Virus record (IMG/VR): IMGVR_UViG_2548876946_000011
Span: 1 to 5,118 of that record
Strand: one strand, 5' to 3'
Origin: a virus
Lineage: Duplodnaviria; Heunggongvirae; Uroviricota; Caudoviricetes
Length of the DNA stretch: 5,118 nt
Within the stretch, counting starts at the first letter, position 1; every line of letters starts with the position of its first letter. The position numbers and the translations under genes are program-made. Under the pieces are notes generated by a model. It saw only the letters and a list, made by a program, of their open reading frames with translations. It ran no database searches and had not been told where the DNA came from. Positions 3,330 through 5,118 of this stretch are shown one piece after another.

Positions 3330-3404
3330 TTCCAATAGTGAATAGTTAGTTGAAAGGTATGCGTGGAAACGCATATGGCCTTAGTTGGTCAGATATATTG
3401 GGAC

Positions 3405-3450
3405 TCGCTTTTCAGCGACGTAGGACGAATGTCCGTTGTTACAAAGAGCG
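3405..3450 (-). promoter_or_regulatory. Candidate nutR (boxA plus boxB-like hairpin) just downstream of cro
   Basis: Minus-strand boxA CGCTCTTT (plus 3450..3443) begins 12 nt after the cro stop. Then gtaacaac, a small hairpin GGACattcGTCC, tacg, and the boxB-like hairpin TCGCtgaaaaGCGA (plus 3418..3405). The same boxA-aacaac-hairpin-tacg-boxB layout recurs at the candidate nutL. Confidence 0.55.
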
Positions 3451-3460
3451 GACCCGCTTA

Positions 3461-3676
3461 TTAAGCAGCTTTGTGTTCCGGCGGGAACACGTCATCAAGA
3501 CTGACTTTTGCGCCTAACTTGTTTAGGCACTCAACAAGAGCACGGCATGTTTTAAGGTCTGGGAAGCGACGACCAGATTCCCAATGTCCGATAGCTCCCT
3601 GTGTGCATCCAACTGCCTTAGCAAGTGTTGTTTGAGAGATATTCAGTGACTCTCGATATTTTCGTAGGTTGCTCAT
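3461..3676 (-). CDS. cro: Cro-type HTH repressor, 71 aa
   Basis: Small HTH protein MSNLRKYRESLNISQTTLAKAVGCTQGAIGHWESGRRFPDLKTCRALVECLNKLG... divergent from cI, with a recognition helix very similar to that of the cI here (TQGAIGHW vs TQGGIGHW). Start at ATG 3676..3674 has an upstream GGAGGG. The track's longer start at 3703 lacks an SD and lies upstream of the predicted pR start. Confidence 0.85.
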   Translation of the reverse strand: MSNLRKYRESLNISQTTLAKAVGCTQGAIGHWESGRRFPDLKTCRALVECLNKLGAKVSLDDVFPPEHKAA

Positions 3677-3702
3677 ATGCCCTCCATAGTAACCATAACA
3701 CA

Positions 3703-3731
3703 ATAATACGATATGTACTTTTAGAATGCAA
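3703..3731 (-). promoter_or_regulatory. Candidate pR promoter driving cro
   Basis: Minus strand: -35 TTGCAT (plus 3731..3726), 17-nt spacer, -10 TATTAT (plus 3708..3703). The spacer (tctaaaagtacatatcg) is nearly identical to the pL spacer (cagtaaagtacacatcg). Confidence 0.65.
3705..3719. promoter_or_regulatory. Candidate operator (OR1-like) overlapping the pR spacer and -10
   Basis: Minus-strand sequence AGTACatatcGTATT, half-site pattern AGTAC-N5-GTAyT. Same motif and same position relative to the promoter as the pL site at 4586..4600. Confidence 0.5.
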
Positions 3732-3764
3732 ACAAAAAATACATCTTGTGCATGGATGATTTTA

Positions 3765-3779
3765 GTACAGAGCGTAATA
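3765..3779. promoter_or_regulatory. Candidate operator (OR3-like) next to the cI start, overlapping a possible pRM -10
   Basis: Plus strand AGTACagagcGTAAT fits AGTAC-N5-GTAnT. A weaker possible middle site AATACatcttGTGCA lies at 3738..3752. A possible pRM -10 TAATAA at 3775..3780 would put the start near ATG 3788. Confidence 0.4.
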
Positions 3780-3787
3780 ATAAGGGT

Positions 3788-4447
3788 ATGAAAATGAAAT
3801 GGTATGAACTGGCTAGATCCAGAATGAAAGAGCTAGGCATAACTCAAGAGAAGTTAGCTGAAGAGCTTGGTATGACGCAGGGTGGAATTGGTCACTGGTT
3901 GCGCGGATCTCGTCATCCATCTCTTGACGAGATTGGTGTGGTGTTTAAATACCTTGGTATTGATAACGTCTCATTCAACCACGACGGTACATTTTCACCT
4001 GTTGGCGAATACTCATCTGCCCCCGTTAAAAAACAATATGAGTACCCTGTTTTTTCTCATGTTCAGGCCGGGATGTTCTCGCCTGAGCTTAGAACCTTTA
4101 CCAAAGGTGATGCGGAGAGATGGGTCAGCACAACCAAAAAAGCCAGTGATTGTGCGTTTTGGCTTGAAGTTGAAGGTAATTCCATGACCGCGCCAACAGG
4201 ATCCAAGCCAAGCTTTCCTGACGGGATGTTAATTCTCGTTGACCCTGAGCAGGCTGTTGAGCCAGGTGATTTCTGCATAGCCAGACTTGGTGGTGACGAG
4301 TTTACCTTCAAGAAACTGATCAGGGATAGCGGTCAGGTGTTCCTACAACCACTAAATCCGCAATATCCAATGATTCCATGCAATGATAGCTGTTCCGTAG
4401 TAGGGAAAGTTATCGCCAGCCAGTGGCCTGAAGAGACATTTAGTTAA
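3788..4447 (+). CDS. cI: CI-type prophage repressor (HTH N-domain plus LexA/S24-like autocleavage C-domain)
   Basis: C-terminal portion [52 protein letters not shown]...[15 protein letters not shown] is almost identical to the lambda cI C-terminal domain as I remember it, including the Ser (GNSMTAP) and Lys (FKKLI) catalytic context. The N-terminal HTH ([23 protein letters not shown]) is unlike lambda. Start is uncertain: the longest ORF begins at 3746, but 3788 (MKMKW) or 3794 keeps the candidate operators in the intergenic region. AAGGG lies 7 nt before the 3794 ATG. Confidence 0.93.
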
Positions 4448-4477
4448 CAGCCTCACCACTCTAAAACACACAACAAT

Positions 4478-4507
4478 AACCCGACCTTAGCGTCGGGTTT
4501 TCTTTTT
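4478..4507 (+). terminator. Rho-independent terminator immediately downstream of cI
   Basis: Stem aacccgac (4478..4485) pairs with gtcgggtt (4492..4499), 6-nt loop cttagc, T-tract ttttcttttt (4498..4507). It begins 31 nt after the cI stop. Confidence 0.8.
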
Positions 4508-4573
4508 CCAAAATATAAATCAATAAAATACAAAGTGTTATAAAAAACTAAACCATATTTAGAACATTTTGTA

Positions 4574-4602
4574 TTGACTCAGTAAAGTACACATCGTACT
4601 AT
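4574..4602 (+). promoter_or_regulatory. Candidate pL promoter with embedded operator (OL1-like, 4586..4600)
   Basis: -35 TTGACT (4574..4579), 17-nt spacer, -10 TACTAT (4597..4602). A near-perfect inverted repeat AGTACacatcGTACT (4586..4600) spans the spacer and -10. A weaker site AGAACattttGTATT (4561..4575) is centred 25 bp upstream and overlaps the -35. Confidence 0.7.
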
Positions 4603-4647
4603 TTAGCCATCAGCAGGAAGCTGGAAGCCAAACGGAACAGACTGGCA

Positions 4648-4694
4648 TGCTCTTTAAACAACGTCGAGCACTCGACTACGTGGCTGAAAAGCCA
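4648..4694 (+). promoter_or_regulatory. Candidate nutL (boxA plus boxB-like hairpin) in the pL leader
   Basis: boxA-like TGCTCTTTAA (4648..4657), then acaac, hairpin GTCGAgcacTCGAC (4663..4676), tacg, and boxB-like TGGCtgaaaaGCCA (4681..4694). Architecture parallels the candidate nutR. Confidence 0.55.
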
Positions 4695-4792
4695 GATCAC
4701 CCAACCACATGAGCTGTGGGATGCAATGCCGAAGCAACCGTCTCAGGAAGAGCTTCGAGATTGCATCACCAAAGTTTATTCGGGAGGAATCT

Positions 4793-5065
4793 ATGTCCAG
4801 AAAAACAGAATTTAAAGGCACCTCAGCTTCTCGTCGTAGAGCTCGTCGCGCAAACCTGCAAAGTCAGGAGGCGATTAGCTCCGACAAGCTACACAGACCA
4901 ACCCCCTCACGAGTGGTCTTGCAATGTAAGCGCAAACCAGCAATGAGAGCAGAAGTAATAACACTGACAACGCTGACCAGAAAATATGAAGGCTCAACTT
5001 GTCTTCCAAACGTAGCTCTTTACGCGGCAGGCTACCGGAAATCCAAACAACTGACAGCAAGATGA
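4793..5065 (+). CDS. N: N-type transcription antitermination protein, 90 aa
   Basis: N-terminal arginine-rich motif MSRKTEFKGTSASRRRARRANLQSQEA is typical of lambdoid N proteins (remembered lambda MDAQTRRRERRAEKQAQW). The gene lies downstream of the pL-like promoter and nutL-like site. Start at ATG 4793 has SD GGGAGGA 5 nt upstream. The track's upstream start at 4709 has no SD. Confidence 0.8.
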   Translation: MSRKTEFKGTSASRRRARRANLQSQEAISSDKLHRPTPSRVVLQCKRKPAMRAEVITLTTLTRKYEGSTCLPNVALYAAGYRKSKQLTAR

Positions 5066-5118
5066 CTTGTGTTGGTCGCCAGAAAATGAAATTAGGCAGC
5101 AAACCACTTATTTGAGGT

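Follow-up and report, generated by a model that had tools for sequence, protein, structure and literature searches.

Two sites in the window (the whole 5118-nucleotide (nt) stretch of viral DNA analysed here, a lambdoid, Shiga toxin (Stx) phage-type immunity and early region running opposite to the customary lambda map) are very probably nutL (4648-4694, +) and nutR (3450-3405, -), the RNA sites at which the antiterminator N would be loaded. This assignment, which an earlier note on the same DNA had proposed from its letters, is supported by position, by the annotation of the phage VT2-Sakai, by conservation and by co-variation of the boxB loop with the arginine-rich motif of N. As the sites are already annotated in a near-identical phage and the extra hairpin that they contain has been published for phage H-19B, the finding is correct but ordinary: nut sites are a known kind of element, and this is a confident annotation of low interest rather than a discovery.

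Both sites lie where the earlier note expected them, one in the pL leader before N and one after cro, and the open reading frame (ORF) map, Pfam and the predicted promoters agree with this placement. nutL is located ~45 nt downstream of a pL-like promoter and ~100 nt upstream of the N_peptide ORF, and nutR begins 10 nt past the cro stop codon and precedes cII. The two share a collinear layout:

4648-4656 (+): nutL boxA, TGCTCTTTA
4657-4662 (+): nutL AACAAC, conserved
4663-4676 (+): nutL spacer (‘reducer’-type) hairpin, GTCGA-GCAC-TCGAC
4677-4680 (+): nutL TACG, single-stranded, invariant
4681-4694 (+): nutL boxB, TGGCT-GAAA-AGCCA, 5-base-pair (bp) stem with a GAAA (GNRA) tetraloop
3450-3442 (-): nutR boxA, CGCTCTTTG
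3441-3435 (-): nutR TAACAAC
3434-3423 (-): nutR spacer hairpin, GGAC-ATTC-GTCC
3422-3419 (-): nutR TACG
3418-3405 (-): nutR boxB, TCGCT-GAAA-AGCGA, 5-bp stem with a GAAA tetraloop

The layout is unlikely to have arisen by chance: the pattern GCTCTTT-N(10-40)-GCTGAAAAGC matches the window exactly twice, at 4649-4692 (+) and 3449-3407 (-), with 0.00 matches expected (200 shuffles), and the 18-nt core TACGTSGCTGAAAAGCSA has no third place even when three mismatches are allowed (0.03 expected). The same pair was recovered by an unsupervised repeat search as the inverted repeat I1 (3404-3423 / 4676-4695). The nutL boxA is identical to the rrn boxA UGCUCUUUA (reference sequences for rrn and lambda boxA are given in PMC2724277), and the two boxA elements are the only exact YGCTCTTTR matches within the window. 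BoxB starts 24-25 nt past the end of CGCTCTTT/TGCTCTTT, close to the ~23-nt spacer estimated in the earlier note, and the boxB stems of nutL and nutR differ by one compensatory change, from G-C to C-G.

RNA folding calls for one correction. While the earlier note had described boxB as a 4-bp stem with a UGAAAA loop, it folds as a 5-bp stem with a U-A closing pair and a GAAA loop (UGGCU-GAAA-AGCCA at nutL, UCGCU-GAAA-AGCGA at nutR). The minimum-energy folds of both whole leaders contain both hairpins and leave the nutL boxA unpaired; the nutL spacer hairpin is present in short and long contexts alike, and that of nutR in the fold of the cro-cII spacer.

Conservation and covariation of the two helices

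We defined close relatives as the 80 IMG/VR loci with an N at least 97% identical to that of the window. All 80 carry identical boxB elements at nutL and nutR, so that the loss of the pattern in close relatives, which the earlier note had named as refuting its reading, is not seen. The nutR module, from boxA through boxB, is kept behind at least three unrelated cro 3' ends, and thus travels with N rather than with cro. At nutL the stem of the spacer hairpin is invariant in these loci and its loop reads CTC, ACTC, ACAC, GCAC or ATC.

The architecture recurs, with compensatory changes, in distant relatives. Our distant set, composed of viral contigs scanned with CTACG-NN-GCTG-N-AAAGC-NN and of loci of annotated phages, yielded 46 distinct sites of matching architecture. 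The position of the spacer hairpin is occupied by at least eight unrelated stems (GGAC/GTCC, GTCGA/TCGAC, GGTGA/TCACC, GATTCA/TGAATC, GATTCG/TGAATC, GGCC/GGCC, GAAGAT/ATCTTC and GGACG/TGTCC) and the 5' arm of boxB is of seven kinds (TCGCT, TGGCT, CGGCT, AGGCT, TAGCT, CAGCT and TGGCC), whereas the single-stranded CAA[C/T] on the 5' side of the hairpin and TACG on its 3' side are invariant or nearly so, TACG being the same in all 24-29 aligned sites. In the alignment of 24 distinct tetraloop sites 100% of the cells pair, with double changes in 7 of the 10 pairs, among them 4 of the 5 pairs of the spacer hairpin; the outer boxB pairs covary (UA/AU/CG and GC/CG/AU), and the boxB loop is GAAA or GCAA only. 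The covariation score is 0.612, as compared to 0.127 for shuffled alignments (reached by 0 of 500) and at most 0.097 with slid partners, and RNAalifold independently predicts both helices. It is the pairing of the spacer hairpin that is conserved, not its sequence. Furthermore, relatives contain G.U pairs (GATTCG/TGAATC, GGACG/TGTCC and, in SPN9CC, UCGCU/GGCGA) that would be A-C mismatches on the opposite strand, and the structure therefore belongs to the RNA of the transcribed strand. This defines the family core as ACAAC, a variable hairpin, UACG and boxB.

Several points weigh against this reading. The rows used for covariation had been pre-selected for pairing, and the inner three boxB base pairs are fixed by the scan pattern. 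For this reason a second test took an upstream boxA, which does not depend on the helices, as its criterion: of the 48 distinct sites defined in this way, 45 have complementary outer boxB pairs and, abutting TACG, a hairpin of 4 bp or more. With shuffled flanks such a hairpin arises 6.5% of the time; the remaining three sites resemble chance matches. Folded alone, the 54-nt segments are unexceptional (z = -1.5 and -0.4), so thermodynamics by itself tells little and the case rests on the relatives. The minimum-energy fold of the 54-nt nutR segment, moreover, favours a pairing that competes with the spacer hairpin (GUCCG with CGGAC); we set this pairing aside as a functional candidate because its upstream partner is variable among relatives and because it vanishes in the longer fold. 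A search of Rfam at a permissive E-value returned chance matches and no nut or boxB family, and a PDB sequence search with the window N found no relative. Lastly, we know of no experiment on this phage or on this type of N, and every experimentally characterised N-boxB pair known to us has a pentaloop or a larger loop, which means that binding of N to a four-nucleotide loop is something that we infer. A scan of 596 Gb of genome contigs with TACGNNGCTGAAAAGC (14 specified bases) was too unspecific to be of use: the matches listed are chance hits in unrelated taxa.

Could the spacer hairpin be a specific determinant – one that shapes NusA or Rho binding at nutR/tR1, or the timing of folding – rather than a passive ‘reducer’ of distance? 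We consider this unlikely, though worth weighing. Among phages that are otherwise very different, the nutR hairpin varies unusually little in both stem (GGAC/GUCC) and loop (AUUC), being identical in the nutR of H-19B, 933W, epsilon34 and SPN9CC, and Rho and NusA both footprint on the H-19B nutR spacer (PMC3526286). The many loops and the unrelated stems found at the same place in the distant set speak for structure rather than sequence as what matters. Neely & Friedman (Mol Microbiol 2000, 38:1074), the source of the ‘reducer’ idea for the H-19B/933W NUT spacer hairpin, reportedly found that pairing of the dyad matters and its sequence does not, compensatory mutants restoring function, and that deletion of the dyad has little effect; the rescue and the mild deletion phenotype both speak against a specific determinant.

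It is much less probable that boxB is recognised as a 6-nt UGAAAA hexaloop on a 4-bp stem. Since nearly all sites keep this U and the final A, covariation offers no proof of their pairing, and a U-A pair could open on protein binding. However, the pair is closed in every fold, one relative (L272) has a compensatory C-G in its place (UGGCC-GCAA-GGCCA), the observed loop variants GAAA and GCAA fit GNRA, and the boxB elements of H-19B, P22 and lambda are likewise closed by U-A under a GNRA-like loop (PMC12027372).

BoxB loop, N motif and known nut systems

The window N has the arginine-rich motif GTSASRRRARRANLQSQ and a C-terminus of the P22/H-19B type; it is 99% identical to the N of VT2-Sakai and 41% identical to that of 933W/H-19B. 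In every case examined, the class of the boxB loop and the class of the N arginine-rich motif change together, N proteins with RRR[AE][RH]RA.LQ pairing with GAAA or GCAA and those with RRRERLKAKALA (H-19B/933W) pairing with GACAA:

Window and VT2-Sakai: N motif GT[SA]ASRRRARRANLQ; GAAA at both sites
phiSTEC1589-Stx1c: N motif RRRAHRAELQ; GCAA at nutL, GAAA at nutR
epsilon34-like phages: N motif GRRRERRAALQ; GAAA
Other metagenomic variants: N motif RRR[AE][RH]RA.LQ; GAAA or GCAA
H-19B, 933W and HK106: N motif RSRRRERLKAKALA; GACAA
HK620-type phages (ECP1, HK630, mEpX2): a different N motif; boxB with a CGAAAU loop, without TACG and without a spacer hairpin

The most informative pair is epsilon34 and SPN9CC, which have the flanks and most of N in common and differ in both motif and loop; on the basis of its divergent N terminus, epsilon34 had been credited in its genome paper with a predicted ‘novel BoxB specificity’ (PMC2629481). 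In phiSTEC1589-Stx1c the nutL at 4884 (+) of the analysed locus (L083) has a GCAA loop and the nutR at 6787 (-) a GAAA loop, so that the cognate N must accept either GNRA tetraloop. There is a parallel in lambda N, which accepts GAAGA and GAAAA alike.

In P22 boxB, the extruded base is the C of GACAA. The window GAAA equals the H-19B GACAA minus this loop C, which makes it a true tetraloop with no base to extrude; lambda boxB extrudes the second N of its GNRNA pentaloop (PMC12027372). It is quite possible, and a reading that we put forward tentatively, that GNRA-tetraloop boxB elements and RRR[AE][RH]RA.LQ motifs constitute a separate, orthogonal N specificity class in which nothing is extruded from the loop. 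Its putative members would be the VT2-Sakai-type Stx phages, the epsilon34-type Salmonella phages and others, and the contacts made by the extruded base in lambda and P22 would perhaps be replaced through ACAAC and UACG, brought together by the hairpin. If this is true, the window N would not cross-activate nut sites of the H-19B/933W type that differ by a single loop nucleotide, with a bearing on the cross-talk of co-resident Stx prophages and on satellites with arrays of nut modules: the specificity class of a prophage N tells which co-resident prophages or satellites it can trans-activate. This putative natural class is the sole aspect of the window sites that lacks experimental characterisation, and the modest additions of the analysis are to define, at the level of sequence, a natural tetraloop boxB class together with the arginine-rich motif cognate to it, and to give the conserved core of the family.

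The closest annotated counterpart is VT2-Sakai (GenBank AP000422), in which the homologous segments are labelled ‘putative N-utilization leftward’ and ‘rightward’; nut annotations are also found in the 933W and epsilon34 records. The VT2-Sakai nutR is identical to that of the window from boxA through boxB. Its nutL has the same architecture and boxB, and differs in the first base of boxA (T in the window, G in VT2-Sakai) and in the spacer loop (GCAC and CTC, respectively). The tR1-type region downstream is also the same, while VT2-Sakai has extra ORFs between cI and pL that the window is without. The comparison extends to the putative nutL and nutR of Stx2 II / Stx1-converting phage.

The architecture itself is that of H-19B. 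The H-19B nutR, used in PMC3526286 and PMC4499122, reads CGCTATTTTCACAAT-GGACATTCGTCC-TACG-TCGCT-GACAA-AGCGA: it shares the spacer hairpin GGACAUUCGUCC, TACG and the boxB stem with the window nutR and adds one C to the loop, and the spacer from nutR to cII is nearly identical overall. More generally, the order of H-19B/933W NUT is that of the window (boxA, dyad-symmetric spacer hairpin, UACG, 5-bp boxB closed by U-A). The extra conserved hairpin of the earlier note is thus real, and it covaries, but it is not new, being the spacer hairpin of H-19B-type NUT: H-19B nutR is known to have two hairpins (Muteeb et al., PMC3526286). N together with NusA/NusG protects the spacer and boxB of this site, and not boxA; Rho, too, binds the spacer, nutR/tR1 being a Rho-dependent terminator (PMC3526286). 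The H-19B/933W N is homologous to the window N with the C-terminus in common, but it is longer (127 versus 90 amino acids) and differs in the arginine-rich motif (RRRARRANLQ in the window N), as does the boxB loop (4 nt in the window, 5 nt in H-19B/933W). Given this loop and this motif, the window combines the H-19B architecture with another specificity class. The boxA is a further difference: it is consensus at both window sites and degenerate (CGCUAUUUU) or absent in H-19B/933W.

The likeness to lambda is more distant. It comprises the position of the nut sites in the pL and pR transcripts, the order boxA-spacer-boxB, the GNRA-type boxB fold with its U-A closing pair and an arginine-rich N encoded beside nutL (PMC2724277, PMC12027372). 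Lambda differs in its GAAAA/GAAGA pentaloop with one extruded base, in its boxA (CGCUCUUA), in its hairpin-free, linear spacer of only 8-9 nt and in an N with no detectable sequence similarity to the window N in the RNA-binding part. P22 has a related N C-terminal part and a 5-bp boxB stem closed by U-A, but a GACAA pentaloop and the arginine-rich motif GNAKTRRHERRRKLAIERD. In E. coli rrn antitermination no N is required and boxB precedes boxA.

We find little room for the hairpins being ordinary terminators, attenuators, or RNA-processing or stability hairpins of the two leaders, which we regard as highly improbable. A consensus scan does call the nutL spacer hairpin terminator-like on the reverse strand (4676-4663, -), a call that we rejected as a by-product of the palindrome, and it makes the same call for boxB plus the next boxA in the satellite arrays described below. 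On the transcribed strand, however, neither hairpin is followed by a U-run and the stems are of 4-5 bp only, and pL and pR both have the module, in all cases together with a cognate N gene; tracking of the N arginine-rich motif by the loop type would be unexpected for a terminator or stability hairpin. That the palindromes act as DNA, as operator-like sites for a dimeric DNA-binding protein, has next to no probability: although both helices are inverted repeats near the immunity region, the G.U pairs of several relatives work on one RNA strand only, the helices stay paired through complete changes of sequence, as an RNA structure typically does and a protein's DNA site does not, and the real operators lie elsewhere (I2, see below). 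Neither these two explanations nor the hexaloop accounts for the tracking of the N motif by the loop, or for pairing that is kept with G.U.

In the mechanism that we propose, N binding, Nus-factor requirements and antitermination itself are the parts that we infer. The pL and pR transcripts would each present boxA, the small spacer hairpin, UACG and boxB, acting as RNA and not as DNA, and the arginine-rich N-terminus of N would bind the GNRA-tetraloop boxB hairpin. As in H-19B, the spacer hairpin would most likely fold away 12-14 nt and so bring the conserved single-stranded ACAAC and UACG, and hence boxA and boxB, close together. NusA would join through N and the spacer, and NusB/S10 probably through the consensus boxA. 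H-19B N reportedly requires NusA and not NusB/S10 or boxA (Neely & Friedman, 2000); since boxA is consensus at both window sites, unlike in H-19B/933W, NusB/S10 may take part here, which would be the opposite of the reduced host-factor requirement of H-19B. The complex would remain tethered to RNA polymerase, resulting in readthrough of the tR1 region, of a tR2-like terminator and of terminators beyond N. Three further features of the two transcripts are relevant:

3375-3350 (-): tR1-type terminator region, presumed target of N; aligns with the VT2-Sakai ‘putative rho dependent terminator for pR transcript’
613-580 (-): tR2-like intrinsic terminator in the helicase-ninB gap; 8-bp GC-rich stem AGGCCTGC...GCAGGCCT followed by TTTTATTT
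4709-4779 (+): long N-leader hairpin between nutL and the N Shine-Dalgarno sequence

The tR1-type region is nearly identical to the H-19B nutR/tR1 region, and the tR2-like terminator, a strong one that occupies the place of tR2 in lambda, is probably among the targets of the N-modified polymerase. The N-leader hairpin is very stable (leader fold z = -3.9) and has 23 consensus pairs, 8 of them doubly changed across six leader types. Its position is presumably comparable to that of the RNase III-sensitive hairpin of the lambda N leader, and it may control N translation. As N-nut antitermination opens the delayed-early genes of lambdoid phages, it is, in Stx phages, the route to expression of Q, toxin and lysis genes.

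Nut-module arrays in satellite islands

Complete nut modules of several boxB specificities also occur as a tandem array between a P4-type integrase gene and an AlpA-family gene (Pfam Phage_AlpA, 7e-20), in a tRNA-integrated satellite-like island:

L311 (viral contig), 1500-1980: satellite nut array
L333 (E. coli A20, NZ_CP028755), 9075-9545: satellite nut array
L334 (E. coli YJ6), 9075-9320: satellite nut array

The array combines modules of the window tetraloop class (with spacer hairpin and TACG), the P22 GACAA type, the H-19B nutL type, the lambda boxB GCCCTGAAAAAGGGC, a CACGC-CUAAUA-GCGUG hairpin and the HK620-type CGAAAU loop. Each boxB has its own boxA, and the array is followed by a 15-bp hairpin and then by the AlpA-family gene. 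Long and short modular versions exist: the long form is found in 32 E. coli genomes at 80% coverage or more, and an extrapolation from evenly sampled rows, rather than a count, suggests a few hundred more E. coli genomes with shorter forms. The array lends independent support to boxA, hairpin, TACG and tetraloop boxB being one functional unit.

In Gram-negative phage-inducible chromosomal islands (PICIs), helper phages switch on alpA transcription via an inducer that was unidentified in 2018 (PMC6092414), and our literature search found no paper combining PICI, alpA and antitermination. The sequence of the array leads us to the hypothesis that antitermination into alpA may let the island sense the N of helper phages. 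The int-alpA spacer of the experimentally studied EcCICFT073 (E. coli CFT073) has no nut modules, and the hypothesis therefore has no tie to published PICI induction data. That spacer (L344, 29185-29255) does contain, directly behind int, five or six direct (G)AACAAC-like repeats to which AlpA or Int may bind.

Other features of the window

The closest public relatives of the window are Stx-converting and related coliphages (2B8, E212, VT2-Sakai, Stx2 II, 2851 and the PA series). Its gene map around the nut sites is as follows:

3791-4447 (+): cI-type repressor gene, Peptidase_S24 and helix-turn-helix (HTH) domains
4478-4499 (+): terminator-like hairpin, bidirectional
4574-4602 (+): pL-like promoter, TTGACT-17-TACTAT, from a consensus scan; overlaps the operator segment common to pR
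4793-5065 (+): N antiterminator gene, 90 amino acids, Pfam PF25694 N_peptide, 1e-31
3732-3703 (-): pR-like promoter, from a consensus scan; operator segment I2 in common with pL
3676-3461 (-): cro-like repressor gene preceding nutR, HTH_3, 1.4e-12; annotated as cro in relatives
3319-3023 (-): cII

On the minus strand cII is followed by an O-type replication gene, a DnaB-like helicase gene and NinB. The pL-like promoter is homologous to the ‘putative major leftward promoter’ of VT2-Sakai. The pR and pL regions are linked by the 20-nt inverted repeat I2 (3702-3721 / 4584-4603, 90% complementary), recovered in the unsupervised repeat search, and its two arms probably represent operator/-10 segments, oR and oL, that serve the cI repressor.

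Inside the O gene, at 2400-2500, there is a cluster of repeated units of the TTTACCGAAT/ATTGGTAAA type, which was flagged as a long ‘terminator-like’ palindrome and gave a spurious miRNA match; these are probably the origin iterons, as annotated in 933W. Finally, a 54-nt mini-ORF, MTCVGRQKMKLGSKPLI*, at 5062-5115 (+) overlaps the N stop codon out of frame. It corresponds to the genuine C-terminus of lambda-type N, which the N of phage DE3 has in frame, and is kept after VT2-Sakai-type and 933W-type N genes alike, with the sequences diverging directly past it; it would seem to be a remnant of that C-terminus and to serve as a joint of mosaic recombination.

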